Source of the DNA: Candidatus Xenobium occultum
GTDB lineage: Bacteria; Vulcanimicrobiota; Xenobia; Xenobiales; Xenobiaceae
DNA length: 64,000 nt
NCBI GenBank assembly: GCA_002423485.1
Contig: DIWH01000011.1
Coordinates: 72,667-136,666, forward strand
Direction: 5' to 3'
Of this stretch, positions 2 through 58,676 are shown one piece after another; position 1 is the stretch's first letter, and each line of letters opens with the position of its first letter. Both the position numbers and the translations under genes were made by a program. The notes under the pieces were generated by a model. That model did no database searches and was not told the origin of the DNA. It saw only the letters and a program-made list of their open reading frames with translations.

Positions 2-646
2 GGCTTTGCCACGGGAACCGCCGGCCTGGGAGCCGGGGGCGAAGACTTCCAGACCCTGCACGCCTTCCTGGATCGCTTCCCCATCCGACTGGAAGTTCCC
101 ACGGCCTCGGGAACCAGCCACGTTCCCGGAGAGCCCAGCAACCTGGACCGGGCCTTCCTGGTGGCCCTGGGACGCGAAGAGGACCGCTTCACCTCAGGGA
201 GGAACTTCCCCGACCCTCCCGAGGAGGATCCTCCCGGGATCAACGACGTGCTTCTGCTGGGAAGGGCTGCGATGCAGGGGTTGCAGGATGGGACCCCGCT
301 CCTCTTCGAGCCCGAGCGCTTGGAGGTCTTCCATCGGCACTTCATGGACATCGCCCGAGGGCTGCAGGCCGATGCCGGCACCCAGGGCGCCCTCCTGGAG
401 CACGAGGGCATCACCTGGACCATCTCGCCCCGGAAGCTGCGCTCGCTGTTCAAGATCGCACTGGCCATGGCCATCCTGCGCGACGAAGAGTTCCTGTCCG
501 GAGAACCGGGAGCAGCCCGGGTCCAGGGCCCGGGGGTCGACGGGCTGGAGGCCTTCAGCGCCATCTGGGACTCTCCAGCAGCCCAGAGGCGACTGCGCAA
601 CCGTCTGGAGTCCACCCTGCGTCGGGCCGAGAAGGACCTGGGCTGA
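2..646 (+). CDS. C-terminal fragment (cut by window edge) of an AAA+ ATPase, MoxR/AAA_5-like
   Basis: Frame 2 is open from the window edge to TGA at 644-646. It contains LHAFLDRFPIRLEVP, resembling the LDRF...YP sensor-2 region of MoxR-type ATPases, followed by a helical lid-like tail. Its stop overlaps the next start (TGATG). Confidence 0.45.
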   Translation, partial: GFATGTAGLGAGGEDFQTLHAFLDRFPIRLEVPTASGTSHVPGEPSNLDRAFLVALGREEDRFTSGRNFPDPPEEDPPGINDVLLLGRAAMQGLQDGTPLLFEPERLEVFHRHFMDIARGLQADAGTQGALLEHEGITWTISPRKLRSLFKIALAMAILRDEEFLSGEPGAARVQGPGVDGLEAFSAIWDSPAAQRRLRNRLESTLRRAEKDLG

Positions 647-2262
647 TGAATCCGTCGGAGGCCCTGGCCCGTTCCCTGGTGGCCGACGCCGCGTGCGCCG
701 GCCTTCCTGGGAGTCCGGCTGCCCTGGACAAGGCCCTGGAGTGGGGGCAGCGAGCGGCCGAGCAGGGGCACGCCCTGCCGTTGCCCCTCCTGCTGGATCT
801 GACCGGGTGGCTGGAGCGTCAGGAGGGGCAGAGCCCCGGTGGGACTGAAGAGCTGGCTCCGCCGGAGCCCGGCCCGGCGGGATTCGACCGCTGGGTCTGG
901 GAGCTGGCCGGCCTGATCCGACACTTCGTCGGCGGCCGCTTGGAGGACCTCAGCCTGTACCAGACTGAGCTCAGCTCCGCCGAACTCAGCCGCCTGGCCA
1001 ACCCCGACCACCCCCGCGCCGGCGAGCCCGACAGCCTGCCCTTCCTGCTGTGGGCTGTGCGACCCGTTCCGGTGGAATCGCACGCTCGCCTGGCGGAAGC
1101 CTGCAGGGTCCTGCGCCGCTCCGAGCCGTTGAAGGCGGACCTGGACCGAGCCTGGCGCGGGCCCCGCCCCCCGGCCGGCGACCCCCGTTGGCGGTGGTGG
1201 GCCGACATGGGCGACGGACCCTCGGGGGACCCCTCGGTTGCAGGCCTGTGGAGCCGCTTCGCCAGCGAAGCCGGAGCCGACTGGCTGCACGAGCGGCTGG
1301 ACCATGTCTCCGCTGAGGTCTACCTGAGAGGCGGGGCGATGAACCCCACCTCGCAGCAGGCCCGGCGCCTCGACTTCCTGCAGCGCCGGCGCAGCGAGGT
1401 CTTCTTCACCCCCATGACCACATGCTATGAAGAGTTGGACCCCTTTCAGGGCGCCATCGCCCTGTCCACCCTGAGCATGGGTGACTACGGGATGTACAAG
1501 ATCGCCAACCGGAGCGCGGTCTGGATCTCCAATCCCCCGTCTGCCCGTCCCTCCCACAAGGTGCACGTGCACCTGACCTGGACGACCCGTTTTGAAGGCC
1601 TCCTGCAGTCCGCCGTCTGGCCGATCCCGGCGGAGGGCTCCGATGAACCTGACCGCCTGGAGGTTCCGGCAGCCTCCCTGCTGCAGGGGATCGTGGCCCT
1701 GGTGGTGGATGACTGGCGCTCGGCCCTGCGCCATCTGCCTGTCCAGTTCCACCTGCATCGCGACGCGGAGGACCAGGAGGGGCTCAACCTGGGCGTCGGC
1801 GGCCCCCGTTGGAGAGGACCCGGGGCCCGGACGGGCCTGCCCCCGGCTCACGTCGTCGCCAGGATCTTCCTGCGCAATTCTCTGGCCGACCTGGCGTCCG
1901 GCGAGGCCGACTGGTCCGTCCCCGCCGGTTCGGCGGACAACTCCTACCACTACTGGTTCGGCTTCATCCTGGCCAACGACCTGCGCAGCCTGGGCTTCCG
2001 TGAATCGCGCGAGTCCGACGGCACCACGCCGGGCTGGGAAGGCCCCCCGGGTCGACTTCCGGATTGCCTGAGCCGTCTGGTCCTGCTGGACCCGGGACTC
2101 GGTGTGGACTGGACGATCCTCGATATCCGACGTGAGCGAAGCGATCTTTTGTCCCCCCGGACCCGCTGCCCTGAACCGGGAGGTGAACCCCACCCCTACC
2201 CTGCCTTGCGAAGAGCGACCCTGGACGTGCTGCTGGAGGCACTGGACCGTCGAATGACCTGA
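646..2262 (+). CDS. hypothetical protein (538 aa), no recognisable motif
   Basis: ATG at 646 overlaps the upstream stop. GC3-rich frame. Followed 20 nt later by the next gene, which has a GGAG-type RBS. Confidence 0.6.
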   Translation: MNPSEALARSLVADAACAGLPGSPAALDKALEWGQRAAEQGHALPLPLLLDLTGWLERQEGQSPGGTEELAPPEPGPAGFDRWVWELAGLIRHFVGGRLEDLSLYQTELSSAELSRLANPDHPRAGEPDSLPFLLWAVRPVPVESHARLAEACRVLRRSEPLKADLDRAWRGPRPPAGDPRWRWWADMGDGPSGDPSVAGLWSRFASEAGADWLHERLDHVSAEVYLRGGAMNPTSQQARRLDFLQRRRSEVFFTPMTTCYEELDPFQGAIALSTLSMGDYGMYKIANRSAVWISNPPSARPSHKVHVHLTWTTRFEGLLQSAVWPIPAEGSDEPDRLEVPAASLLQGIVALVVDDWRSALRHLPVQFHLHRDAEDQEGLNLGVGGPRWRGPGARTGLPPAHVVARIFLRNSLADLASGEADWSVPAGSADNSYHYWFGFILANDLRSLGFRESRESDGTTPGWEGPPGRLPDCLSRLVLLDPGLGVDWTILDIRRERSDLLSPRTRCPEPGGEPHPYPALRRATLDVLLEALDRRMT

Positions 2263-2282: not shown

Positions 2283-4391
2283 ATGCCCACCTACGCGGAA
2301 TTCAAGACCATCAAGGACCTGGTGCTGGGACTGCACGTGTGTTCCGGGCCTCGCGTCCGTTTCCCCGAGCAGTTCCTCCAGGCCTCGGACGGGCGCTGGA
2401 TCGTAGAGATCTCGCCCGAGGATCTGGACCTCAACGAGATCCAGGCCGTCCTGGACTCCCTGGCCCCGTCCGACCCGGGTCGGGTCCGGATTGCCTCGGC
2501 GGCCCCCTCCGGGCTCTCGCGACCCATCGTCTCGGTGCTGGATGGGACGTGGGTCTATCGCGACCCGCAGAAGTCTTCCGGCCTCCCCGTCGACCCCGCG
2601 CTCGAGCCCGGCCTGCATCCCCACCGGGAGGGCGTGCGCTACATCCTGGCTGCCCGGGACGCAGCGGGGGCCCAGCGCCTCCTGGAGAACCTCTCCGAAG
2701 CCCTGGTGACGGGGATCCGGGCCTTTTCCTGGCCCCAGGCCACCGAACCAGCCCCCGGAACACATCGGTTCTGGTTGGTCACCTCCAACGATCCCCCCGT
2801 CCCCTACCACGTCCTGGCGGAGGCGGAGCGGGCCTGGTGGGGGCCCCTCGTCACGCGCCCCTGCCAGGTCTTCGTCCAGTGGCCCTACTCGCTGGACCTG
2901 GCTGCCCGACTCCTGGAGCGAATCCCATGGGGTCCGGAAGGCTCGGTGGTGCTTCTGAACCATCCCCGAGAAGCCGCCGGGGACCCGGCCGTGGTGGTGC
3001 TCGAGCCTCCGGGGCAAGCCCGCGAGTTCAGCCCCCTGATCGACGTGGCCGACCTGAGGCTGCGAGGTGAAATGAGCCAGCCGGCCCGTGGCCAGGCCGT
3101 GCCCCCCGCTGCCGAATTCGAGATCCAGGTCCGCCTGGTCGAGGGAACGGAGCGTTCGACCCGGGCTCGGCGCCTGGCCGATCTCAAGCACGAGATCCGG
3201 GCCCTGCAGTTGGCGCTGGCCAGACTGGAAGGGGAACCGGGCGAGCCTCGCTCCCTGGGCGAGGGCCCGTCGGAACCTCTCTTCCTGTTCGCCGGGGATC
3301 CCCCCAAGGGCCCGGGACAGCCGGCCATGCTCCCCGAACCCCTGCAACGGCTGAACGTGGAATGGACCGACCAGCCCCGCGAGTTGGGACGACTGCGCTA
3401 CCTGCAACTCAGCCCCGGCTCACTACCCAGGCACCTGGTCGCCCCGGACCGGGTGGTCCACGTGCTGACCACCGCGGCCGCATTGGGAGAGCCGGGAGAG
3501 GAACCTGGGGCCGACCTGGTCAGCCTGCGCCTGCGCCACGACCTGGCCGAGGGAGAGGGGCTGACGCGCTTCCACCTGCTTCGGGAGTGGGCACGATTCG
3601 GGCTGCGGATCTTCCTGCCGGCCGGGCAGGCCCTGAGCATCTACCCCGACCTGCCGACCTGCACCACGGCGGCCGACAAGCTGGCCTCGGTGCTGCTGCC
3701 CCAGGACGACGGCGACCGGCAAAACTGGTGCGTGCTCTTCTCGCGCGGGCCAGAAGGAAGGACCCAGGTCTGCCGGGTCCGCGGCCCCTTCCGGCGACTG
3801 GTGGAGGCTTCCGAGTGGAAGTGCCGGCTGGACGTGCCCCTTCCCGAGGACTGGGCCGGACGACTGGAGATGTATGCCGCTGAGCAGGCCGACCAGGTGT
3901 TCCTGGAATCCCTGGAGAGGGCCTTCCGCGACGAGGCCCGGGGACATGCCGTCGAGCACCTCGAGACGCGCCGCCGCGAGCTGGCCGGAGAGCTCCAGCA
4001 GACGCACCTGGCCGACCAGGCCGCCCTGCGGGAACAGGCCGGCACCCTGGAAGCGCGAATCCGAGCCGACCGGGAATGGCTCGACCTGGTCGAGGCCGGA
4101 CGCCAGGAGCTCCGCACCCGGGCCGAAGAGATGGCCCGGGTTCAGGCCGACCTGGAGGGGGCGTGCCGTCGCCTGGAACGCGAACTTGAACTGGCGGAGG
4201 GTCGAGCCCAGGGGCTGCGCGAGGTCGCGACACGGATCCTGGACGGTCTGGAGGGACCGGACGAGACCACCCGCCGGGCTCGCGTCCGCACGGAGGAGCT
4301 GCGTCGCTCGCTGAACGAGCTTCTGACCCGACCGGCGGCGCCCCGCCGACGGGTTCGCGGCTGGAGGAGGTGGCTCGGCCGTGGGCAGTGA
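2283..4391 (+). CDS. hypothetical protein (702 aa) with long C-terminal coiled coil (E/R/L/A-rich heptads, last ~170 aa)
   Basis: ATG 2283 preceded by ggagacgag. Continuous GC3-rich frame. The C-terminal region has low-complexity coiled-coil-like composition. Confidence 0.6.
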   Translation: MPTYAEFKTIKDLVLGLHVCSGPRVRFPEQFLQASDGRWIVEISPEDLDLNEIQAVLDSLAPSDPGRVRIASAAPSGLSRPIVSVLDGTWVYRDPQKSSGLPVDPALEPGLHPHREGVRYILAARDAAGAQRLLENLSEALVTGIRAFSWPQATEPAPGTHRFWLVTSNDPPVPYHVLAEAERAWWGPLVTRPCQVFVQWPYSLDLAARLLERIPWGPEGSVVLLNHPREAAGDPAVVVLEPPGQAREFSPLIDVADLRLRGEMSQPARGQAVPPAAEFEIQVRLVEGTERSTRARRLADLKHEIRALQLALARLEGEPGEPRSLGEGPSEPLFLFAGDPPKGPGQPAMLPEPLQRLNVEWTDQPRELGRLRYLQLSPGSLPRHLVAPDRVVHVLTTAAALGEPGEEPGADLVSLRLRHDLAEGEGLTRFHLLREWARFGLRIFLPAGQALSIYPDLPTCTTAADKLASVLLPQDDGDRQNWCVLFSRGPEGRTQVCRVRGPFRRLVEASEWKCRLDVPLPEDWAGRLEMYAAEQADQVFLESLERAFRDEARGHAVEHLETRRRELAGELQQTHLADQAALREQAGTLEARIRADREWLDLVEAGRQELRTRAEEMARVQADLEGACRRLERELELAEGRAQGLREVATRILDGLEGPDETTRRARVRTEELRRSLNELLTRPAAPRRRVRGWRRWLGRGQ

Positions 4392-4569
4392 GGCTATCGG
4401 CCGGCCGCTCCCGAGAAGGCTCCCGGATCCCCCGGTCGGCCCGGGGGATGACCTGAACCATGCCTTGGAGCGGGTTCGAAACGAGTTTGAAAGCCTCCAG
4501 GCGCGCTGGGAGGTCTTCCAGACGATGCCAGGGGAAGAGGAAGGGTCCGAGGGGAGGAGGACCTCGTGA
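4381..4569 (+). CDS. possible small protein (62 aa), GTG start
   Basis: It fills the 175-nt gap between two coupled genes. GTG 4381 follows a GGAGGAGG-like tract. Its stop forms a GTGA overlap with the giant gene start at 4566. GC3 bias is moderate. Confidence 0.3.
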   Translation: MGSEAIGRPLPRRLPDPPVGPGDDLNHALERVRNEFESLQARWEVFQTMPGEEEGSEGRRTS

Positions 4570-7500
4570 GGCCAGACCCGCGTTCCAGGGCAACGGGCAA
4601 CCCGATCCACGTCCTGCTCCCCGCCCTGCTGGCCCTGGGACTTCCCGTCCTGGGGGTCCTGGCCCTGGCCTTGCTGCCGGTGGACCGATACTGGATCCTG
4701 GGCTACGAAGGCCTGCATTTCTACCGCATCTGGCCCTGGCTGATGGTGGCGGCCGCGGCCTGCATCCCCCTGGCGGGAGCCTGGATCCATTCCCGCCACG
4801 GTCGACCGCTGCACCTGCCCGGGATGGCCACCCTGGCCGTCCTGACCATGCTCCTGATCAGCCTGCGTCTGGCCACCTCCTGGAGCCTGGAATGGCACGC
4901 CGGGATGGTCTGGCTGTCCCTGCTGCCCCTGGCCGGCGCCAGCCTCACCCTCGCCCTGGGCTTCCTGGCCTTCAGCGAAGTCTGGAGGCGGGTCTGCAAC
5001 GGGCCCGTGGTGCGCACCTTGACTGGACGCCTGGGCCCGGGCCGCCTTCCGGCGCTACGGGTCGTGCCCGAGCGTTCGCGTTATGCCCGGGGGCGCCCCT
5101 GGGGCTCCCCACACCGCCTGGCGGTCCTGAACGCCAATTTCCAGCTCACCCTGGCCCGTGTGCACTCGGTGGATTCCCCCTATCCCCCGGACGAGGCGGA
5201 CCTGCGCCGGCTCTTCCGGGCCGGCGGGGCCCTGGTCGAGTGCCTGCTGCGCCGCTGGCCTGAGCAGGGCCCTGGATTCCCCTGGATCCTCGGGCTGCCT
5301 GACCGGGCCCAGCGCAGAGACCTCAACCTCCGGACCCTCCTGGACATGATCGCGGTTGGCCTGGAGAGGCTGCGACCCGCCAACAGCCCTGTGGACCCGA
5401 GCCAGGATGCCCTGGCCACCGAGTTGCGCCAGGTCCTGCCCCAATGGATGGAGGCCCTCGAGGTGCTGGCAGGTCCCCAGGCTCCCGGACTGGCCCTGGT
5501 GCGAAGGCTGGTCCGGGCGGGTCTGGACGGCTCGGCCGCCACGCGCGGGTGCGTCGCCGAGATCGTCGAGGAAGCGCGGAATTCCCAGACGTCGGATGCC
5601 GGGCCGAACCTGTCGGGTTGCTGTCCGGCCCTCTGGCTCCTGGTGGTTCCGGACGAGGTGCCGGGCGAACTGGTCCACGACGTCTGGCGCGAACTCTTCC
5701 AACGGGTCCCAGGCGACGGGGCGGAGTCCGCCCCTCCCCTGGCCTGCGAAATCCTCCAGACGCAGCATCTCTGGCGCCTGGTCGACCGACGCCTGGCCCA
5801 CCTCCCCCCTTTGCAACGCTCTGGCTTGGCGAGGCAGAAGGTGATGTTGGAAGAAACCGCCGGCCGATTGCAGGAGCGGGTGGACCTCCTGATGGGCCAA
5901 CACGGAGAGGCGCGCAACCCGTCGGAGGTGACGGCCCGGGCCGGCGCTGGAGTCCCCTCCTGGCCCTACTGGGAGGTCCGCAGGACCCCGGCCGTCCGAC
6001 GCCTGGTCGGGGGACTGGCGGCCCTGGCGCTCGCGCCGGTCCTGCTGGCCCTCCTGGCCAGCAACCCGTACGTCAGCCCCCTGGGAGCCAATACCATCGA
6101 CCACGTCCAGGATCCCCGTTGGTACCGTCCGACCCTGACGGGGGACTGGTTCGACCTGGCCCACAGCAAGAACTGGCTGGCCCTGGCCTCTCGGGAAGGC
6201 GACCTGACGCTCTTCAACACCCGCAGCCGGCTGCCTCGGGAAGCCAACCTGGAGAGTCCAGCCCGGGACGTAGCCGGCGGCATGCAACCGGGAAGCTTCC
6301 TGGCCATCACCCGCGACCAGGGGGTCGAGGAGGTCACCCCCGGGGCCGGGCCCCTGGGAGCCCGGGTCGACCTGGAGACCTGGCTGCCTGCCCGCGAACG
6401 CTGGGGGTGGCCGGGCCCGGGAGGGTTCGAGGCGCGGGCGGTCCTGGCCAATCTCCTGGATGAACGCGGCTGGCTGCTGGCCGTCCGGGGACGGGGTCTG
6501 GCACGGTATGAGTTCAGGAGCGAGCCGAACGGCCGACGGGTCCGAAGCAGGTCCTGGCAGTATGGCTCCTCACCGCACCTGGATCTGGACCAGGTGGCCC
6601 TGACCCTCCAAGGCGCCTGGTACTCCGAAGGCCAGGGCGGACTGGGGTTCGCAGACCTCGACACCCTCGACCCCGTGGGCACACGCAGCGTCTCGACCCC
6701 CCCGATCCGACGACTGGATGCCAACTTCGACCAGGACTGGGCCAGCGCCACCGACAAGCGCGACGGGCTGTGGCTCTTCGACCCCTCGATCGAGCGCTGG
6801 GCCGGGGCCTTCTTCGGACACGTGGAGCGCAGGACCACCTTGAAGTCCCTGGACTCGGTGCGAGCCGCGCGACTGGATGGAGATCTGGCCTGGCTGGGCG
6901 CCCGGGAGGGCCTCTTCGCCTACGACCTGGTCGGCAGGCGGCTCCACCCGGCTGTTCCCGGGTTCTCCAGCACCGCGCTGGAACCCCGGCCAGGCTCGGA
7001 CGCCGAGACTCCCCGGTCGGTCCTGGCGGGCGGTCCGCTGGGCCTGGTCCGGGTCTCGGCCGGGCCTCAGGACTTCCAGACCCGCAGACTGGACTCGGAG
7101 CCGGTGACCAGCCTGGCCCTGGGAGAGGACTCTTCGACCGCCGCATGGCTGGCCGATGGGAAGAGCCTGAAGGTCCTCAAGGAACCCTTCGGGGAGGGCC
7201 GACCCGCGACCTGGGTGCCTGCAGCCGGGGGACCGCGCATGACCGAGTCTCCGACCGTCCTGGATGCACGGCGGGCCAAGGACGGTTTGCTGCTCCTGAC
7301 CCGGGCGGGGGTCATCTACTATCAGGGGACCGAGCACGCCTACCGGGACGCCTCTCGCACCCGGGTGCCGGCTGTCCCTTCCAAGCGCTTCTCCGAGAGG
7401 ATCGAGACCCTGAAGAGCCTCGACGACGTCGATGTCACCGAGGGGCGCCTGGCCATCCTGGGAGACGGGCGACCCCACCTCCTGCAGGAGGACGCCGAGG

Positions 7501-10500
7501 CCGATGCCCCCCTGTGGCGGGCCCTGGACCCCCTGCGCCTGGGCCGACCGGTGCAGGTGGCCCAGGCAGGGGGCCTGGTCTTTGGCCTGGGCGGCGACGG
7601 GCGACTCTTGCGCTACCAGGAGGCCGAGGTCCAGACCTGCCCGGCCACCCCCGGGGGACTTCCCCGGGGGGACTCGTCGCGCTTCCAAACCCGAGGGGAC
7701 CTGTTCGAGCGAAGCGACGAGACCTGGCGGGTCAGCTTCGTGCACGAGGACCGCCTGTACACCTACGACTCGAAGTCGGGGAGCAGCCGCTCCCAGGCCT
7801 TGGCCAGCCACCTCCGAGGTCGGGTGAGCCAGGTCCGCCTGGTTGGCGAAGATCCCTTCCTGCTGGCGGACCAGCGCGTGTTCACCGATCAAGGGGAACC
7901 ACTCTTCGGATTTGGAAGCCTCCCGTTTGCGCCGACCCAGGTCTCGGCCCTGAGCCCGGGAGCGGACTGGCAGACCGTCCTGGTCGGAGGACCCGAAGGC
8001 CGGGTCCTGCAATACCGCTGGAACGACGCTTCCTGGCGTCCGGTCGGGGGACGGCCTCTCCCCGTCAAGAGCCCCCGGTCGACGGTGGAGGAAGTCCTCC
8101 AGACTCCGGGTGCGGTCCTGACCCGGGCAGAGGGCAGGGTCTTCCGCGGCACTTCCCGGGGTTGGGCGCCCGTCCCCGACTGCCGACGCGCCGCCTTCCC
8201 TCTGGCGGGCCTCTCCGGGTGGGGCCTCTTCCGCGACCACGTCCAACGGATGGACGCCAGGTCCAGTCGACCCGAAGGCCCCTTCTACTGCACCGGGATG
8301 ACCGAGGCCCGCCCTCGCGGCGGATGGCGCGCAGCCTGGCAGGACGAGTCGGGGCTGGTCCTGTTCTCTGAAGAAGGTTCGTATGCCACCTATGATCCGG
8401 ACACCGACTCGTGGAGTTCGGGCAGGCTCCAGGGTCTGAAGGAACTGGACGGCTTCACCCCTTGGAAAGGCGGAATGATGGTCCTGCAAGGGAAGAGCGT
8501 GCATCGCATCGTGCGCGACCCGAATCGCGGCCCGCTCAAACCCGAGCTCTTCGCGACGGCCCCGGGCCCGGCTCGCGGGATATCCCTGGCCAGCACCGGC
8601 TCGAAGCTGCGCATGTCCTACCTGCACGGCGGCGACGTGGTGGTTCGCGAGTGGGAACAGCCCCGGGGCCTGCCGGGTGAAGTCCGCCGCCGGCAGCGCC
8701 CGATTCCCGAAGGATTCGACGCTGCCGACGTGGTGGCGGCCACGCCGGCCGGTCGAGGTGCGCTTTTCTTCGACAGCCGGGGAGCCTGCGCCAGCTACGA
8801 TCCCCTGCTGGGACGTTGGGGACTGCTGCGCCAGGCCCGACCGGGCCAGACGGTCTTCGCCTGGGTCTCCTCCCCGCGGCCGGCCCTGGTCCTGCGCACG
8901 GAAGACAACCGGACCCACACCTTGCGGACCCTGCCGGACCTGACGCTGTCCGAGCGCGTGTACGAAACACCTCCCGAGCAGGTCCTGGAGCGGTTGGAGT
9001 GGGAAGGTTGCACATGGAAGGCCCCAGGCGAGGGGACGCTGCTGGAGACCGAGACGCTGCGGATCACCCGCCAGCAGGGACAGACCCGCTATGAAGCCGG
9101 ACGAGACCGGCAATGGATGCCCCTGCACCTGAAATCCACGGGATTTGCGGAGGACCAGCCCACGACGGTGCTGATGACCTCCAACGGCACCCCCTGGATC
9201 CTGGCGGGAGAAAGGCTCTTCCAGGTTCAGCCCAACGAAGCCTCCAAAGGCCTGGCCTTCACGGGTCGAGTGCTCCCGGGTCCTGTCCAGGCCGCCGGGG
9301 CCCTGGCCCAGGTCGAGATCCGGACGCAAGACCCTGGGGGCCTGGCCCGGTGGACCGAGCCGGAGCCGGGAGCCGCCTTGCAGGCCATCCCTGCCGACTC
9401 CAGCACTCCCCTGGCCCGCTCCACGATAGCCGGACACGAGGTCGAATGGGTGCTGGATCCCGCCCAGAAGGGAATCCCTGCCCAGGTCTCGGTGATTCCC
9501 AGGCATCGGGACGGACGTCCGACCGCCTTCACGGAAGAGGGTCGGCTGGACTTCCAGACCATCCAGGATCTGGCCGTGATGAACGATCGGCTGTTACTGG
9601 CCACCCCGACCGGGGTCGTGGTCCGCGACGCCCAGAGCTTCGCCTTCCGCGAGCTGCATGCCGGCCCGCCGGTCCGGGCCCTGATCCGCGCCTTCGGGCC
9701 CGAACGCCTGCTGGCCCGCCTGGCCGACGGGCGCGTGGTGGACTGGCAGGAGCAGGGGTTGGGAGGCGAGGACCTCCGGGGGACCCCCCAGGGTACCTCC
9801 CGAGTCGAGATGGGCCCCGTCACCTGGAGCCTGCTGATTTCCGGAAAACCCGGGGTCGGCTCGGGACTGGCCCTGACCATGAAGGAATCGCCCGTAGAGT
9901 GGCGACCGAGCCAGGACGGCTGGCTGCCCGAGATGGACCGGGTGGCGCGCCTGGATCGCCTGGCCTCGGCGGAACGGGCCCTGGTCCTGGGAACCGGGGC
10001 CGGCTCCTGGCGACTGGACCCGGACAACCTGCGGGCCTTCGAACCCGTTCCGGCGGTGGAACCCGAGAAGGTCCAGGGAGGCCACGCGGCCCTGGAGGTG
10101 ACTGCCGAAGCCCCGGTCCTGACCCTGCGGGCCCCGGACGACGGGCCGGTCTTCAACCAGGGGAGATTCTACTTCGATGTCGGCGGGGGCCTGCGCGGCC
10201 TGGGCTCTTCCATCTACACGCTGGTGCCGGGACGGGGCCTGGTGGGCCGGGACTCGGCCGCCCCCAACCACATCCTGGGCTACTGGCCACTGGATCGGCA
10301 GATGCCGGACGGACGGCCCGCCCTGGCCGCCGAGGACGGTCGACTCTCCCTGGCCTTCCAATCCTCCTCTCCCTCCCAGCGGACCCGATGGTTGCTGCCC
10401 CCGGAGGAGGGGGCTCGCTGGCGGCGGGATCCGAACCCGAATCGACCCGAGCGGGTCGAGTACGGGCCCGTCACCTGGCGTGGTTGGCGGGACGGACGAA

Positions 10501-11978
10501 GCGGCTTCCAGGCCGTGGTGGCCCACGATGGCCGGGACGAGGTCCTGCGGGAATGGTGGAGCCGGGACCGCTTCGCCTGGGACGACGTGCGCTCCGTGGG
10601 GGTGCTGGGCTCGCACACGGTCGTGGCCCTGACCCCGGCCGGCCTGGTCCTGTGGGACCGGGACTCGGGCTCCTTCCTGGAGGCCGACATGATCCTCCAG
10701 CCGGGCTTGGAGAGGCTCCTACCCGCCCGCCGCCAGGGACGCCGGGCAGGTCTCCTGGCAATGGGACCTTCCGGCCTCTTCCTCCTGAGCGCCGGGGAGT
10801 CGCAGCAACCAGGCCTCACCGTCGCGACAACCTCCGACTACGAACACCAGCCCGGACTGGAGCTGGCACGGGTTGCGGGCGAACCGGAGCCCTTCGTCAC
10901 GCTGGTGGAACGCTGGCGCCGCGGCGACCCCAGAAGGCCCCAGGAAGCGGCCCTGGTCTCGTCGATTCCGGACTTTGAGCCCTCTCATCTCCTCACGGAC
11001 GGTCAGTTCGTCTTCGACCAGGGGCAGGCGGCCTGTCCTGTGGCCAAGGGCCCCCTCTGGGCGGTCCACGCCCCGTCAGGTCCGCGCAGCCTGGTCACCC
11101 TCAACCGACTGCTGGACTCTGCCCGGGACGGCCGACCCCGGTTGCTCCTGACCCGCGTCCTGCCTGCTCCCGCCCGATTCTCGGCCATGCGCTCCCACCC
11201 GGAAGGCTTCCTGGCCCGGGAGGTTCAGGGCAAATGGTGGCTGGCCCGGATCGCGGGGCCCGAAATCCGTTGGAGCCGACTGGAGTCCCTCGACAAGATG
11301 CCGGAACTCCGCGCCGGGGACCAGGTCGCCCTGGACGTGCAGCGCCTTTCCTGGTCCGCCACTCCACGCCACCTGGGAGACCAGGGAGTCGCTCTGAGGG
11401 TCACCCCCCCGGGCTATCCCCTCTTCGCGACCCTGGACCAGAAGACCGTGCTGGCCTTTGACGGGTTGACGTCCATCTCGGCCTTCCCCAAGACCCGCAG
11501 TCTGGCCCTGGGCACCCTGGGCGGCGTCTACACGGTCCCGTTCACCGGAAACGGAAGAGCCGTGCTGACCTTGCAGGATCCCCGGGCCCGGTTCACCTTC
11601 CGCTGGAAACCCTCGGACGAAAGCGATTCGGACTGGTTGGCGGATGTCCGAGAGGTGCGCCATGACCTGGACGGGACGCTGCACGCCCGATTCGCCCACG
11701 GGTTGGAGGTGGCGCGCCAGGGCCAGGACGGGACCTGGACCCGGGCCGAACGGATGCCCGAGGACGAGAATCGGAGCCCCCGCCACCGAATGACGGTGAT
11801 GGGAGGAAGACTGCTGCTGGACGGGCGGGCCCTGGTCACCAGCAACGACCTGCCGGCAGGACGACGAGACCTGGTGGACATCGTGGGCAAAGCCTATGAC
11901 CCCGAGGACAACGCCCTGTGGCTGGCGACCCGGAACCAGGGACTCTTCAAGCTGGTCCTGGACCGCCTGCTGGAATGA
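4566..11978 (+). CDS. giant membrane-anchored repeat protein (2470 aa); 4 N-terminal TM helices, ~330-aa loop, 5th TM helix, then ~1970 aa of W/G/R-rich beta-propeller-like repeats
   Basis: GTG 4566 is 7 nt after AGGAGG (4554-4559). The open frame is uninterrupted and strongly GC3-biased. Hydrophobic stretches lie at residues ~15-150 and ~478-498. Recurrent motifs (DGRL, GLFxYD, LWLATRNQGLFKL) resemble two-component-regulator propeller repeats. Confidence 0.75.
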   Translation: MRPDPRSRATGNPIHVLLPALLALGLPVLGVLALALLPVDRYWILGYEGLHFYRIWPWLMVAAAACIPLAGAWIHSRHGRPLHLPGMATLAVLTMLLISLRLATSWSLEWHAGMVWLSLLPLAGASLTLALGFLAFSEVWRRVCNGPVVRTLTGRLGPGRLPALRVVPERSRYARGRPWGSPHRLAVLNANFQLTLARVHSVDSPYPPDEADLRRLFRAGGALVECLLRRWPEQGPGFPWILGLPDRAQRRDLNLRTLLDMIAVGLERLRPANSPVDPSQDALATELRQVLPQWMEALEVLAGPQAPGLALVRRLVRAGLDGSAATRGCVAEIVEEARNSQTSDAGPNLSGCCPALWLLVVPDEVPGELVHDVWRELFQRVPGDGAESAPPLACEILQTQHLWRLVDRRLAHLPPLQRSGLARQKVMLEETAGRLQERVDLLMGQHGEARNPSEVTARAGAGVPSWPYWEVRRTPAVRRLVGGLAALALAPVLLALLASNPYVSPLGANTIDHVQDPRWYRPTLTGDWFDLAHSKNWLALASREGDLTLFNTRSRLPREANLESPARDVAGGMQPGSFLAITRDQGVEEVTPGAGPLGARVDLETWLPARERWGWPGPGGFEARAVLANLLDERGWLLAVRGRGLARYEFRSEPNGRRVRSRSWQYGSSPHLDLDQVALTLQGAWYSEGQGGLGFADLDTLDPVGTRSVSTPPIRRLDANFDQDWASATDKRDGLWLFDPSIERWAGAFFGHVERRTTLKSLDSVRAARLDGDLAWLGAREGLFAYDLVGRRLHPAVPGFSSTALEPRPGSDAETPRSVLAGGPLGLVRVSAGPQDFQTRRLDSEPVTSLALGEDSSTAAWLADGKSLKVLKEPFGEGRPATWVPAAGGPRMTESPTVLDARRAKDGLLLLTRAGVIYYQGTEHAYRDASRTRVPAVPSKRFSERIETLKSLDDVDVTEGRLAILGDGRPHLLQEDAEADAPLWRALDPLRLGRPVQVAQAGGLVFGLGGDGRLLRYQEAEVQTCPATPGGLPRGDSSRFQTRGDLFERSDETWRVSFVHEDRLYTYDSKSGSSRSQALASHLRGRVSQVRLVGEDPFLLADQRVFTDQGEPLFGFGSLPFAPTQVSALSPGADWQTVLVGGPEGRVLQYRWNDASWRPVGGRPLPVKSPRSTVEEVLQTPGAVLTRAEGRVFRGTSRGWAPVPDCRRAAFPLAGLSGWGLFRDHVQRMDARSSRPEGPFYCTGMTEARPRGGWRAAWQDESGLVLFSEEGSYATYDPDTDSWSSGRLQGLKELDGFTPWKGGMMVLQGKSVHRIVRDPNRGPLKPELFATAPGPARGISLASTGSKLRMSYLHGGDVVVREWEQPRGLPGEVRRRQRPIPEGFDAADVVAATPAGRGALFFDSRGACASYDPLLGRWGLLRQARPGQTVFAWVSSPRPALVLRTEDNRTHTLRTLPDLTLSERVYETPPEQVLERLEWEGCTWKAPGEGTLLETETLRITRQQGQTRYEAGRDRQWMPLHLKSTGFAEDQPTTVLMTSNGTPWILAGERLFQVQPNEASKGLAFTGRVLPGPVQAAGALAQVEIRTQDPGGLARWTEPEPGAALQAIPADSSTPLARSTIAGHEVEWVLDPAQKGIPAQVSVIPRHRDGRPTAFTEEGRLDFQTIQDLAVMNDRLLLATPTGVVVRDAQSFAFRELHAGPPVRALIRAFGPERLLARLADGRVVDWQEQGLGGEDLRGTPQGTSRVEMGPVTWSLLISGKPGVGSGLALTMKESPVEWRPSQDGWLPEMDRVARLDRLASAERALVLGTGAGSWRLDPDNLRAFEPVPAVEPEKVQGGHAALEVTAEAPVLTLRAPDDGPVFNQGRFYFDVGGGLRGLGSSIYTLVPGRGLVGRDSAAPNHILGYWPLDRQMPDGRPALAAEDGRLSLAFQSSSPSQRTRWLLPPEEGARWRRDPNPNRPERVEYGPVTWRGWRDGRSGFQAVVAHDGRDEVLREWWSRDRFAWDDVRSVGVLGSHTVVALTPAGLVLWDRDSGSFLEADMILQPGLERLLPARRQGRRAGLLAMGPSGLFLLSAGESQQPGLTVATTSDYEHQPGLELARVAGEPEPFVTLVERWRRGDPRRPQEAALVSSIPDFEPSHLLTDGQFVFDQGQAACPVAKGPLWAVHAPSGPRSLVTLNRLLDSARDGRPRLLLTRVLPAPARFSAMRSHPEGFLAREVQGKWWLARIAGPEIRWSRLESLDKMPELRAGDQVALDVQRLSWSATPRHLGDQGVALRVTPPGYPLFATLDQKTVLAFDGLTSISAFPKTRSLALGTLGGVYTVPFTGNGRAVLTLQDPRARFTFRWKPSDESDSDWLADVREVRHDLDGTLHARFAHGLEVARQGQDGTWTRAERMPEDENRSPRHRMTVMGGRLLLDGRALVTSNDLPAGRRDLVDIVGKAYDPEDNALWLATRNQGLFKLVLDRLLE

Positions 11979-11988
11979 ACCGCTCGTC

Positions 11989-12849
11989 TCAGCCTCCGGA
12001 AAGGGCTCCCAGGACGCTCCCTTCTGAAGTGCAGGGGCCGACGTCTCCCAGGCCGCTGCCATCGAAGGTGGGAATGAACCGTGCGTCGGCGGACTGCAGG
12101 TCCTGGACCCATCCGTCCAGGTCGGGGAGCCCGTCCAGGTAATCCAGGACCTGCTCATACTCCTCGGAGGTCAGGGTCCGGTTCAGTTCAGGGAAGGCCG
12201 CCAGGTCGCCGACCGGGGTGTACTGGGCCATGATGGACACCGGAGTCCCCGCGGGAAGCGTGGCCAGGAAGTCCAGGGCGGCCAGGGTGTTGGGAAGGTT
12301 CCCGGGCAGCACCAGGTGGCGGACCACCGTGCCCCGCGCCAGCAGGCCCTCCTCGTCGAAGAGAGCCGGCCCCGTGGCCTCTCGCATGGCCTGGATCGCG
12401 GCCCGCGCCGTCTCGGAATAGTCCTCCCGAGCGCTGTAACGCGCGGCCAGGCCGGGCGAGGCGTACTTGAAATCGGGCAGGAAGATGTCGACCCAGGGGG
12501 CGACCCGGGCCACCAGGTCCACGGTTTCGTAGCCGCTGGAGTTCCAGACCACGGGGATGCTGGGGCGAGCCAGGGCCAGGGCCTCCCGGATGGATTCGGC
12601 GAAGTGGGTGGGTGTCACCAGGTTGAGGTTGTGGGCTCCCTGCTCTTCGAGTTCCCGGAAAACCTCGGCCAGGCGAGGAATCTCCAGGTTCCAGCCGCGT
12701 CCTTGGCGACTGATCTCCTGGTTCTGGCAGAAGGCACAGCGCAGGCGACAGCCCGAGAAGAAGACCGTCCCCGACCCCCGGGTCCCGCTCAGGCAGGGTT
12801 CTTCCCAGTGATGCAGGCCGGCCCGGGCGACGCGAACGACCCGGCTCAC
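11989..12849 (-). CDS. PflX-like radical SAM protein (pyruvate formate-lyase activase homologue), N-terminally short
   Basis: HHWEEPCLSGTRGSGTVFFSGCRLRCAFCQN carries the CxxxCxxC radical-SAM motif, and the downstream sequence matches the COG1313/PflX family. Start is taken as GTG 12849, overlapping the upstream TGA (GTGA). The usual Cys-rich N-terminal region of PflX is absent in this frame. Confidence 0.6.
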   Translation of the reverse strand: MSRVVRVARAGLHHWEEPCLSGTRGSGTVFFSGCRLRCAFCQNQEISRQGRGWNLEIPRLAEVFRELEEQGAHNLNLVTPTHFAESIREALALARPSIPVVWNSSGYETVDLVARVAPWVDIFLPDFKYASPGLAARYSAREDYSETARAAIQAMREATGPALFDEEGLLARGTVVRHLVLPGNLPNTLAALDFLATLPAGTPVSIMAQYTPVGDLAAFPELNRTLTSEEYEQVLDYLDGLPDLDGWVQDLQSADARFIPTFDGSGLGDVGPCTSEGSVLGALSGG

Positions 12850-14093
12850 GAGCGCCGCTCTCCAGCCCCCCCCACCAGACAACCCTCCAGCGCCAGGGCC
12901 ATCGCCTCGGCCGTCGGATAGCGCCGGTCGGGATCGCGCTCGGTGGCCGTCAGGCAGACCTGGTCCAGGTTCTCGGGGACTTCGGGCCGCAACCTGCGGG
13001 GCGACATGGGATTGCCGTGGAGGATCTGCGCCAGCATGCCGGTCACCCCCTCGCGCCGCAAAGGCAGGTCCCCCACCAGCATCTCGTACAGAATCAGGCC
13101 CAAGGCGTAGAGGTCCGTGCGGCCGTCCACCAGGTCGGACTCGGTTTGAAGCTGCTCGGGCGCCATGTAGGCGGGAGTGCCCAGGGTGCACCCCGGTTGG
13201 GTCAGGCGAAATGCGGCCTCCAGCAAACGCGAAATCCCGAAATCCACGAGACGAACCCTTCCGCTGGGTTCGATCAACAGGTTGCCCGGCTTGAGATCGC
13301 GATGGACCACCCCCGCCTGATGGACCACCTGGAGAATCCGCGCCACGTCGCGGGCGATGCGGGCCGCGCGAAGAACCGGCAGGGAGGCGAAGGCCAGGAT
13401 CCGGTCCAGATCCCGGCCGGGGACCAGCTCCATGGCCAGGTGGGGAAACGGTTCGGTCTGGAAGTCCCAGACGGGCACGATCTGGGGATGGGCCATGCGC
13501 GCCATGATTCGGGCCTCCTGGCGGAACCGGGCGACGTGGGCCGGCGAGAGCATCTCCTGAGGAAGGACCTTCAGGGCCACCTCCCGCTGCAGGGAGGTGG
13601 CCAACGCGCGGAAGACCTGCCCCATCCCACCTTCGCCCAGGACCTCCAGGATCCGATAGCGTCCCAGGGTCTGGCCAGGAAGCCCCCGGAAGGGCCTGCC
13701 CCCCGAATCCGGGGCCGCCCCCCGGGTGGCGCGCAGGCAGACCTGGATTCGGGCCAGCAGCACGGATGGATCGACCGGCTTGAGCAGGAAATCATCGGCG
13801 CCAGCCTGGAGGAGCTGGACCTCCAGATCGGGCCCGGCCCGCGTCCCCAACACCAGAATCGCCAGGTCCTCCGGGGAGAAGCGGCGGCGCAGACCGCGCA
13901 CTGCGTCCAGAAGGGGATGCAGAGAATCCAGGACGACCAGGTCCACCTGCTCGGCCAGGAGGGTCTCGAGGGTCTGCCCCGCTCCGACAGCCCGCAGGAT
14001 CCCGTATCCCTGGTCCTGGAGACTCTGAACCAGACCCTCCAGGGCCACGGGGTCCTCCCCTGCCAACAAGACACGCCTGGAGTTGCCATCCAT
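12846..14093 (-). CDS. response-regulator receiver domain fused to Ser/Thr protein kinase
   Basis: ATG 14093 gives MDGNSRRVLLAGEDP..., a REC domain with DSLHP and KP motifs, followed by a kinase with VALK, HRDLKPGN, DFG and APE motifs. The ORF-track start at 14279 adds an implausible Pro/Arg-rich leader. Confidence 0.7.
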   Translation of the reverse strand: MDGNSRRVLLAGEDPVALEGLVQSLQDQGYGILRAVGAGQTLETLLAEQVDLVVLDSLHPLLDAVRGLRRRFSPEDLAILVLGTRAGPDLEVQLLQAGADDFLLKPVDPSVLLARIQVCLRATRGAAPDSGGRPFRGLPGQTLGRYRILEVLGEGGMGQVFRALATSLQREVALKVLPQEMLSPAHVARFRQEARIMARMAHPQIVPVWDFQTEPFPHLAMELVPGRDLDRILAFASLPVLRAARIARDVARILQVVHQAGVVHRDLKPGNLLIEPSGRVRLVDFGISRLLEAAFRLTQPGCTLGTPAYMAPEQLQTESDLVDGRTDLYALGLILYEMLVGDLPLRREGVTGMLAQILHGNPMSPRRLRPEVPENLDQVCLTATERDPDRRYPTAEAMALALEGCLVGGAGERRS

Positions 14094-14520
14094 GGGGGTG
14101 CATTTCCACCGCGCCCCTGGAGAGGCCTGCCGAGACGAGGTCACGACTGGCAGCGCGGGTGTCTGCGAATCATGGATCCGGCTAAAAAATGCGCATGCAC
14201 CGGACAACGAGAAGGGTCGCCGGAGCGACCCTGGTGGTGGGCGGGCCTGAGACGGCTGCTTCCGGCCGGACGACTCCATTCTTGTTTCGGGCCGATCGAC
14301 GACAGGCGCTGACGCGTCTCAACTCCCGCCCAGATCATCCTGGCAGAATTGCCGTCGGGGAACATTGCCGGAACGTTGCCGACAGGACAAAGATGCAGAT
14401 GCGCTTTCCTGCCTGGGTGCACATGCAAGAATCTCCCAGGAACGGGTCATGGTCTCGAGGTCTGAAGACCCCTTCGACGGAGCCAATCCGGACTCGCGCC
14501 GACCGGTCCCCTGAGAAATC

Positions 14521-14552: not shown

Positions 14553-14628
14553 TGGTGGAGCCAGTCGGACTCGAACCGACGGCCTCCTCCGTGCAAGGGA
14601 GGCGCTCTCCCAGCTGAGCTATGGCCCC
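14553..14628 (-). tRNA. tRNA-Ala(TGC)
   Basis: 76-nt cloverleaf with anticodon loop CTTGCAC, G3:U70 identity pair, T-loop TTCGAGT and encoded CCA. Confidence 0.9.
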
Positions 14629-14698
14629 AGGGTTCACCGGTAAAAACTGCCCCTATAGAAATGGGAGCGGCGGACCGCTCCCACTTCCAAGGCAGTTG

Positions 14699-14775
14699 TG
14701 GTGGGCTTAGCTGGACTCGAACCAGCGACCTCGTCCTTATCAGGGACGCGCTCTAACCACCTGAGCTACAAGCCC
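14699..14775 (-). tRNA. tRNA-Ile(GAT)
   Basis: 77-nt cloverleaf with anticodon loop CTGATAA, T-loop TTCGAGT and encoded CCA. Confidence 0.9.
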
Positions 14776-19734: not shown

Positions 19735-19763
19735 TTGACACCCAGCCCTCCTGGTGGCAGAAT
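19735..19763 (+). promoter_or_regulatory. sigma70-type promoter upstream of nrdJ
   Basis: Consensus TTGACA (19735-19740), a 17-nt spacer, and TGg-CAGAAT extended -10 (19755-19763). Two AT-rich 10-bp perfect palindromes lie immediately upstream. Confidence 0.35.
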
Positions 19764-19846
19764 TTTTCAAGTCCGATCCTCGTCCGGCGACCCTGTCGCC
19801 TGGTCCCGAAACGATCGGACCCGCAACTGATCGGAGGGCCACTTTC

Positions 19847-26721: not shown

Positions 26722-26985
26722 GCACGGCGTCTCGTCTCCAGACTCCGACCAGACCTGAATCCGCCGCCTGCGTTGTCCCGCCTCCGGGTGCCATGCTATG
26801 ATGGCACTGCCCGACTCGCGAGGCCCCCCCACCCCCCCTGACCGGAGTCCTCCCGGCGGGGAGGTTTGTTGTTCTCCAGCCCCCGTCAGGCAGGGGTCCC
26901 GCGCTTCGGATGGAAGCCCCTGCCCCGAACATCCTGGTGTGCCGCCTGGACAAGGCAGCACGGTGTTGAAGAGAGGTACTTTCGG

Positions 26986-45782: not shown

Positions 45783-45855
45783 CGTTTGAGGCTCCTTGTA
45801 TGACCATCCGGGAGAACACCGCCCGGATCAGGGCAACTGCCCGGGCGGGAGGGGC

Positions 45856-48066: not shown

Positions 48067-48234
48067 GTGAGTCCTCCCTGGAAGACCTGCCGGGAGCCCG
48101 GAATCCTGTCGACGAAATCCAGAAGGCAGACCGGCATGGTTGGGCCTGTTTGATCCTTCCAAAGATAGCCTTCCCGTCTCCCAACCGTCCAATGCCAGGA
48201 TGATAACATCCCGACAGGTCAGGAGTTCCCCGAA

Positions 48235-58592: not shown

Positions 58593-58676
58593 GTCGTTTC
58601 CTCCACTATGGTTGGGACCCCAGAAATGAGGGCCTGCACTCGCCCCGGGGTGGCTCCGGAGGCGCACTCTTCCCGT

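Follow-up and report, generated by a model that had tools for sequence, protein, structure and literature searches.

The closest description of the locus reported here is that of the beta-propeller-containing MoxR–vWA ternary systems, whose ATPases form the Pfam family PF20030, bpMoxR (Kaur, Burroughs, Iyer and Aravind, eLife 2020; PMC7159879). The third component of these systems is membrane-proximal and combines a variable N terminus, a transmembrane (TM) segment and C-terminal beta-propellers, and the bpMoxR clade was noted for an AKS peculiarity in its Walker A motif (PMC7159879). MoxR ATPases in general serve as maturation or assembly chaperones of specific client complexes, and a role in conflict or defence was proposed for the bpMoxR systems by the authors who defined them (PMC7159879). 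A second point of reference is the experimentally supported Esr threat-sensing pathway of oral Actinomycetota, in which the surface propeller protein EsrA signals via MoxR/vWA and a kinase/phosphatase pair (bioRxiv 2026; PMC13622651). Here we describe a 64,000-nucleotide (nt) stretch of the genome of Candidatus Xenobium occultum (contig DIWH01000011.1, positions 72,667 to 136,666), hereafter the window, in which a gene for a 2470-amino-acid (aa) membrane protein, hereafter the giant, stands at the end of a MoxR gene cassette. This operon context was absent from a first-pass annotation of the giant made from the sequence, and it is the more informative part. The cassette resembles a Reg_prop-type periplasmic sensor joined to a MoxR system, yet it falls outside both families, because the giant has neither a Pfam Reg_prop score nor a histidine kinase output and the cassette has no detectable vWA.

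The giant gene is the last member of a conserved, translationally coupled cassette with the order p555, bpMoxR-type AAA+ ATPase, p538, p702, p62 and giant. Start and stop codons overlap or nearly abut at the cassette junctions; for example, the MoxR stop codon overlaps the ATG of the p538 gene. All five independent loci (5/5) keep this order, at 52-86% identity, with p555 upstream of the MoxR gene. Likewise, in one NCBI genome the orthologue of the giant is preceded by genes encoding proteins of 555, 450 (AAA_5/bpMoxR), 536, 705 and 67 aa.

The MoxR portion encoded in the window shares 97, 89, 74 and 73% of its residues with the corresponding C-terminal half of the 450-aa MoxR proteins from the related loci L004, L003, L001 and L005, respectively. 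Full-length cassette MoxR proteins, taken from L001 and L004, match PF20030 with 101-105 bits against a cut-off of 27, and also match AAA_5. In the cassette MoxR, both Walker A (GRPGVAKS) and Walker B (FLDE) are intact, and the protein is apparently active. It belongs to a tight clade of ~100 clusters with 41-64% identity, beyond which identity drops to 33% or less. Weaker PF20030 matches are found in simple MoxR–VWA_CoxE pairs or in a phage-like region. The latter (L010, 1-16209) contains a distant bpMoxR-family ATPase of 394 aa and a 471-aa partner, together with a terminase large subunit, an HNH endonuclease and sigma factors.

Homologues of p538 down to 30% identity again directly follow a bpMoxR gene, and p538 itself has zero matches in Pfam, NCBIfam, PADLOC or the PDB. 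A PDB profile search with p702 returned only generic coiled coils, at positions 530-690. The small protein p62 is 66, 53 and 38% identical to the open reading frame (ORF) at the same position in L004, L003 and L001, the last of which has a called gene of 67 aa, and the G+C contents of its three codon positions are 0.70/0.52/0.78.

Cassettes with a giant that is only 25% identical occur in distant phyla, namely in a Bryobacteraceae metagenome-assembled genome and in Sumerlaeota. The Bryobacteraceae giant aligns to the window protein with 25% identity over 2417 alignment columns (E=6e-105), and in the part of the alignment that was printed, it runs from TM1 to at least residue ~1450 of the window protein. 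The 5′ part of these loci encodes a Ser/Thr-kinase-AAA fusion protein (~1240 aa), an AAA protein, a p555-like protein, another AAA protein and two small proteins, and the 3′ part encodes bpMoxR, a p538-like protein, a p702-like protein, one small protein and the giant (2353 or 2321 aa). In the Sumerlaeota locus, an extra 522-aa gene lies between the p702-like gene and the giant gene, beside the small protein. Among these extra genes 5′ of MoxR in the two loci (L008, 1-9976, and L009, 1-9946), the two classical AAA proteins have 616 and 544 aa and the two small conserved proteins ~190 and 166 aa. The 166-aa protein also precedes MoxR in L006 and L007.

A vWA partner was sought within the cassette. 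No VWA family was found at E<=10 among 18 members of the p555, p538 and p702 families in Pfam searches, and hhalign comparisons of p538 and p702 with the vWA proteins that partner other bpMoxR ATPases reached only E=0.6-0.7. A vWA identity of p538 and p702 was rejected at the sensitivity of these two approaches. A cryptic vWA that lacks the metal ion-dependent adhesion site (MIDAS) may nonetheless be present in the cassette proteins. A canonical MoxR-type pair is encoded ~34 kb from the cassette (window 43551-48192, minus strand), and the window also encodes a stand-alone VWA-domain protein (Table 1). The VWA of the canonical pair was readily found, and hence vWA partners of the ordinary kind pose no difficulty for detection in this genome.

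When compared with the systems of Kaur et al., the cassette shares several features. Its MoxR matches bpMoxR and has the unusual AKS in Walker A, its large partner has a variable N-terminal globular and membrane-spanning part followed by predicted C-terminal propellers, further linked alpha and alpha+beta proteins of unknown family accompany these two, and it is related to systems with extra classical AAA+ genes. However, no vWA was found in the cassette, whether or not carrying a 4-blade propeller, a Pfam scan showed no TPR region in the giant, and the giant is far larger, with ~45 predicted blades. Furthermore, the cassette MoxR forms its own tight clade, at 33% identity or less to the MoxR of PF20030-matching MoxR–VWA_CoxE pairs, and its P-loop reads GRPGVAKS rather than the GXXXTAKS of Kaur et al., such that AKS is common to both but Val takes the place of Thr. 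The giant is likened to their third component by description. Literature searches on bpMoxR and on Reg_prop together with MoxR yielded nothing.

High-GC genomes yield many long spurious ORFs, and the window, at ~70% G+C, is no exception. One explanation considered was that the giant ORF is spurious, or represents several genes fused by a sequencing or assembly error. Several antisense ORFs lie inside the gene and are very long, up to 978 aa (e.g., 6570-9506 on the minus strand). These did not pass a filter based on G+C content by codon position, and are taken as high-GC artefacts. In contrast, the giant gene is one intact ORF of 2470 codons plus stop, with a GTG start that lies 7 nt downstream of the Shine-Dalgarno sequence GGAGGAGG and shares bases with the p62 stop codon in a GTGA overlap. 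Its G+C contents by codon position are ~0.74/0.53/0.84 in all eight 900-nt windows, and this uniformity indicates one continuous coding frame. Six independent full-length orthologues were retrieved from a set of 5.8 billion proteins. They have lengths of 2466-2480 aa, 52-100% identity and matching ends, and they align with almost no indels, features that together exclude a fusion or frameshift artefact. Full-length orthologues occur in five other assemblies. Nei-Gojobori ratios of nonsynonymous to synonymous substitution (dN/dS) are 0.23 and 0.34 relative to orthologues of 86 and 70% identity, respectively, and no 190-codon window exceeds 0.56. The family is rare (51 clusters at 50% identity in an exhaustive HMMER search of 1.84 billion representative proteins), and its clusters were found worldwide. 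The gene is thus real and is under purifying selection along its entire length, as the first-pass annotation had assumed in treating it as a single 2470-aa protein, and the artefact explanation, effectively refuted by the coding signal, orthologues, dN/dS and family size, is given next to no weight. The protein has zero Pfam families at E<=0.1 and zero NCBIfam matches.

The predicted layout of the giant comprises four N-terminal TM helices, an all-alpha cytoplasmic domain of ~340 aa, a fifth TM helix (TM5) and a tail of ~1970 aa. Kyte-Doolittle peaks at aa 16-34, 56-74, 82-102, 117-135 and 480-498 reproduce the membrane topology proposed in the first-pass annotation. The WP, G..H..G and W..W motifs of the N-terminal TM bundle are kept in distant family members. 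AlphaFold models aa 185-445 as all-alpha, with ~13 helices at a predicted local distance difference test (pLDDT) score of 60-84, and the alpha domain has no relative in a Pfam scan or in a comparison of the family profile with PDB sequences. An invariant juxtamembrane motif, PSWPYWEV (aa 464-471), closes this domain. The most conserved stretches of the giant flank the membrane, at aa 140-189, 464-471 and 499-577.

Several observations bear on the orientation of the protein. Basic residues cluster at the N terminus, in loop 2, after TM4 (SEVWRRVCNG...RLPALRVVPERSRYARGRPWGSPHR) and before TM5 (VRRTPAVRR), and the segments following TM1, TM3 and TM5 are neutral or acidic. This positive-inside bias places the N terminus and aa 137-478 in the cytoplasm and the tail outside. 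In addition, HMMER searches revealed shorter family members of ~2040-2130 aa that lack the first ~460 residues. These begin with SWPYW, followed by basic residues, one TM helix and a conserved NP...NTIDHV segment, an arrangement that corresponds to a type-II signal anchor and therefore implies the same orientation as TM5 and the tail of the giant. The solved relatives of the tail are all periplasmic domains, which agrees with a tail-out topology. The prediction is thus of a tail outside the cytoplasmic membrane, on the side opposite to the soluble segment as the first-pass annotation had proposed, with TM5 as a putative signal anchor. In the family at large, the N-terminal module varies, in that some members have it, some lack it, and in others it is longer or carries ankyrin repeats.

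The tail is estimated to consist of ~45 diverged, Reg_prop-like, four-stranded blades of ~44 aa each, which would be enough for five or six propellers. The figure of ~45 follows from 1970 residues at a 44-aa period, and the blades appear to be grouped as three-blade super-repeats of ~130 aa. The giant is rich in W (3.1%), G (10.0%) and R (10.6%) and contains the motifs GLFAYDL, GRVLQYRW, ALWLATRNQGLFKL and DGRLSL, as had been noticed from its sequence at the outset. A self-hhalign on the six-orthologue alignment revealed zero significant internal repeats. Self-alignment of a 36-sequence family profile yielded off-diagonal matches that extend over more than 1000 columns (E=1e-20 to 1e-13), and these bear out the repeats that the first-pass annotation had anticipated. 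The shifts cluster near 130, 260, 340, 500, 630, 900 and 1130 residues. In family-averaged hydropathy, 44 aa is the top spectral component in 5/8 windows of 400 aa, whereas the maximum among 500 block shuffles is 4 windows, and spectral power in the 40-50 aa bins is 0.174 compared to 0.093 +/- 0.022 in shuffles. The windowed spectrum was thus above shuffles, but hydropathy autocorrelation over the entire tail was not. An iterated blade hidden Markov model (HMM) picked out no more than 3 blades of the giant. The blades are too diverged to be enumerated by sequence, and therefore the count rests on the 44-aa period and on predicted strands.

AlphaFold was run on two 1200-aa pieces (aa 136-1335 and aa 1271-2470) with 6-sequence alignments, and the resulting models are of low confidence, with mean pLDDT values of 47 and 46.5, respectively. 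Global superpositions are meaningless at such values, and only the local fold class was used. The entire tail is modelled as short antiparallel strands in groups of four, and blades start every ~43 aa within aa 1271-1510. With regard to a closed 7-bladed fold, the four-strand meander and the ~43-aa spacing are present, but the mean pLDDT is 47 and TM-scores are 0.1-0.2.

Relatives of the tail were sought by profile and by predicted fold. When all PDB sequences were searched with a profile built from 21 distant members, it matched BT4673 (3ott/3va6; E=6.3e-9), BT4663 (4a2l; E=6.1e-8) and 3v9f (E=0.028), and the sole other matches were two actin-interacting WD-repeat proteins (E=0.16 and 2.1). 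The matches to BT4673 and BT4663 suggest that the tail is a very long array of diverged Reg_prop-type blades. In this search, the blade DSVRAARLDGDLAWLGAREGLFAYDLVGRRL of the giant aligns to DVRTMALQGDTLWLGALNGLYTYQLQSRKL. A PDB search with the single giant sequence gave one insignificant match, again to 3va6 (E=3.4). With Foldseek, BT4663 and BT4673 are the nine best matches to the aa 136-1335 model, at TM-scores of 0.1-0.2, and the aa 1271-2470 model matches DDB1, SF3B130, CPSF160, LRP2 and ROS1 as well as BT4663/BT4673 (E ~1e-10). The Pfam Reg_prop HMM (PF07494) has no match in the giant at E<=0.1 and matches 0/21 distant members at E<=0.01. Accordingly, the description of the blades as Reg_prop-like in the first-pass annotation is right at the level of distant homology, as judged from profile and Foldseek matches, but does not extend to recognition by the Pfam model.

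The BT4663 and BT4673 hybrid two-component system (HTCS) sensors of Bacteroides (structures in PDB 4a2l/4a2m and 3ott/3va6) are thus the sole significant sequence relatives in the PDB and the top fold matches for aa 136-1335. The blade motif W-[LI]-[GA]-T-x-x-G-L-x-x-Y-D is common to HTCS sensors and the giant, as is an extracytoplasmic location (predicted for the giant) after an N-terminal membrane anchor. However, HTCS sensors consist of two 7-bladed propellers, a YYY domain, a TM helix and histidine kinase, receiver and AraC modules. The giant has ~45 predicted blades, an N-terminal cytoplasmic part and MoxR in its operon, and it lacks YYY, histidine kinase and receiver domains. A Pfam scan of the giant found no HisKA, HATPase_c or Response_reg domain, and the protein ends in predicted beta blades. 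The resemblance of aa 1271-2470 to the consecutive propellers of the eukaryotic scaffolds DDB1, SF3B130 and CPSF160 and the LRP2 YWTD arrays is accompanied by zero sequence relationship, TM-scores of ~0.1 and unrelated biology.

Our preferred reading, to which we assign a probability somewhat below one half (roughly 45%), is that the giant spans the envelope as a sensor or scaffold and is coupled to the MoxR machine in the cytoplasm. Judging from the models, the protein probably displays ~45 beta-propeller blades outside the cell. By analogy with the Reg_prop propellers of hybrid two-component sensors that bind glycans, this array could offer binding sites outside the cytoplasm for a conserved envelope ligand or a foreign surface ligand. 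Occupancy or mechanical load would then be passed via TM5 and the conserved juxtamembrane segments to the cytoplasmic alpha domain, which the MoxR ATPase and its four soluble partners might bind and remodel, so that the receptor is switched or reset and its state is relayed. In relatives, the Ser/Thr-kinase-AAA and AAA proteins, whose genes lie directly upstream, might receive this relay. The cassette would in this case represent a vWA-less variant of the membrane-proximal beta-propeller/MoxR systems and a functional analogue of the Esr pathway. In support of a sensor or scaffold, cassette linkage is conserved in five loci and in distant phyla with overlapping junctions, and the conservation peak at the membrane-flanking stretches hints at a coupling core, as do the kinases or phosphoesterases that recur beside the cassette.

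The parallel with the Esr pathway is one of logic only, in that a beta-propeller protein at the surface (predicted for the giant) is genetically linked to a MoxR ATPase and has kinases or phosphatases in its vicinity. Unlike the giant, EsrA consists of Ig-like repeats that form a secreted filament with a single WD40 propeller at its end, and unlike the cassette, the Esr pathway includes an evident vWA protein together with a kinase/phosphatase pair and an FHA output. Pfam searches found neither vWA nor FHA in the cassette, and its kinase or Metallophos neighbours differ between lineages.

A number of observations weigh against the sensor or scaffold proposal. The vWA, hallmark of MoxR co-chaperones, was not found in p555, p538 or p702, and in the clade of the window no output domain (histidine kinase, FHA, HTH or cyclase) is fused to the giant or constantly linked with it. 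The tail is not hypervariable, with dN/dS of 0.16-0.33 and almost no indels, which fits a conserved ligand or a structural role better than an arms-race sensor. Moreover, the topology is a prediction from hydropathy and charge only, propeller closure and number are estimates given a mean pLDDT of 47 and TM-scores of ~0.1-0.2, and the function is drawn from sequence and analogy.

Several of these same observations suit the main rival explanation, in which the giant is a structural envelope component or adhesin, for instance a scaffold at the surface or across the periplasm, and MoxR together with p555, p538, p702 and p62 holds, targets or matures this secreted client without signalling. MoxR ATPases generally act as client-specific assembly chaperones (PMC7159879), and here the ATPase and its partners are kept in strict gene order and in translational coupling with the putative client. 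The even purifying selection on the tail and the scarcity of indels are as expected for a structural protein, and these features, along with the lack of a constantly linked output domain, somewhat favour the chaperone model. However, the conserved alpha domain and SWPYWEV are retained in the mature protein, which would provide a permanent cytoplasmic interface and not a transient signal for targeting, and kinase-AAA fusions in relatives are more typical of signalling or conflict systems. This retained interface and the kinase-AAA genes favour coupling or signalling, and the nearest blade homologues are ligand sensors. We judge a pure assembly function to be rather unlikely. Following Kaur et al. 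2020, one could instead view the variable N-terminal membrane module as an effector, perhaps membrane-perturbing, that MoxR unleashes once the propellers sense an invader. The family N terminus is indeed variable (absent, longer or with ankyrin repeats), the cassette occurs in genomic contexts that differ by lineage, and those who defined the bpMoxR systems put this interpretation forward. Nevertheless, such an effector role seems quite unlikely, given that within the clade of the window conservation of the N-terminal module equals that of the remaining protein and no toxin-like domain was found in Pfam or NCBIfam searches. PADLOC-DB 2.0 likewise contains 0 families for MoxR, p555, p538, p702, p62 and the giant, and searches of plasmids and phages found no homologues. 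A role in nutrient capture, in which the tail is a periplasmic or surface array that binds or degrades glycans for polysaccharide uptake and the MoxR link is incidental, appears highly improbable. According to their PDB entry titles, the BT4663/BT4673 Reg_prop propellers bind glycan fragments, but no glycoside hydrolase, SusC/D or transporter genes are present in the cassette or its conserved flanks, and MoxR linkage that is conserved across phyla is not incidental.

We also considered a broader version of the sensor or scaffold proposal, in which the cassette would define a hitherto undescribed, vWA-independent class of MoxR AAA+ machines present in several phyla. ATP hydrolysis would be mechanically coupled via the five-helix core to the ~45-blade array, making the giant an energised receptor for surface surveillance or an actuator that spans the envelope, and p555, p538, p702 and p62 would be new folds or co-chaperones that replace vWA. 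This more sweeping view, taken as a whole, is unlikely.

The genes adjoining the cassette vary by lineage, although kinases or phosphoesterases recur among them. In the window, genes for a radical-SAM protein and a receiver–Ser/Thr kinase fusion are convergent with the giant gene (Table 1). The two ORFs overlap by ~345 nt, and therefore the radical-SAM start is probably further downstream. This pair is kept in L003 and L004, and a Metallophos gene is found instead in L001 and L005; retention only in the closest relatives indicates that these neighbours are probably not core parts. Beyond them lie adjacent tRNA-Ile(GAT) and tRNA-Ala(TGC) genes, a pair normally found in rRNA operon spacers, and an Rfam search found zero rRNA anywhere in the window. 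Housekeeping genes are located downstream (19754-22363 and 26866-28899, plus strand), and this set includes ribonucleotide reductase with a TSCPD domain, CNNM/CorC, TilS, FtsH and a cation-efflux protein. Because base composition is uniform, nothing obvious marks the cassette as a recent island.

Table 1. Positions of the giant gene, its predicted parts and neighbouring features within the window
Feature	Position	Strand	Evidence or remarks
bpMoxR-type AAA+ ATPase, C-terminal 214 aa	2-646	+	gene truncated by the left edge of the window
p538, conserved soluble protein	646-2262	+	always directly 3′ of the MoxR gene
p702, conserved soluble protein, C-terminal coiled coil of ~150 aa	2283-4391	+	conserved in all loci
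p62, small conserved ORF	4381-4569	+	overlaps p702 end and giant start (GTGA)
Giant gene	4566-11978	+	
Four-helix transmembrane bundle, aa 16-135	4611-4970	+	hydropathy peaks 1.56-2.54
Cytoplasmic all-alpha domain (predicted), aa 137-478	4974-5999	+	AlphaFold, conserved columns, flanking basic residues
TM5, aa 479-499, predicted signal anchor for tail	6000-6062	+	hydropathy 2.48; predicted helix
Extracytoplasmic tail (predicted), aa 500-2470	6063-11975	+	self-alignment, 44-aa period, all-beta meander, profile and Foldseek matches
Clearest Reg_prop-like blade, aa 763-794, DSVRAARLDGDLAWLGAREGLFAYDLVGRRLH	6852-6947	+	aligns to BT4673 102-135; blade HMM iE=2e-13
Best-predicted propeller region, aa ~1055-1510	7728-9095	+	pLDDT 70-79 (aa 1055-1200), 70-90 (aa 1271-1510)
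Radical-SAM protein, 400-aa ORF, convergent with giant gene	11989-13191	-	Pfam
Receiver–Ser/Thr kinase fusion, 477 aa, convergent with giant gene	12846-14279	-	Pfam
tRNA-Ile(GAT) and tRNA-Ala(TGC), adjacent	14553-14775	-	
743-aa protein, C-terminal VWA/VWA_CoxE domain	43551-45782	-	
778-aa protein, two AAA_5 domains and midasin-type lid	45856-48192	-	
Stand-alone 459-aa VWA-domain protein	57288-58667	-	VWA/VWA_2/VWA_3 matches

MoxR ATPases are widespread, but to our knowledge very few of their clients have been identified, and almost every system described relies on a vWA co-chaperone. The cassette links a MoxR clade of ~100 clusters to a defined client, a giant membrane protein, with no vWA detected, and the cytoplasmic interface of this client can be mapped to a short invariant motif. 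How an AAA+ ATPase communicates with an extracytoplasmic binding array therefore becomes a directly testable question in this cassette. The giant and its four partner families amount to five protein families without a Pfam or NCBIfam model. Reg_prop-type propellers have so far come mainly from glycan sensors of Bacteroidota, and the giant family, through distant homology, widens this range to little-studied phyla and to a very different architecture.

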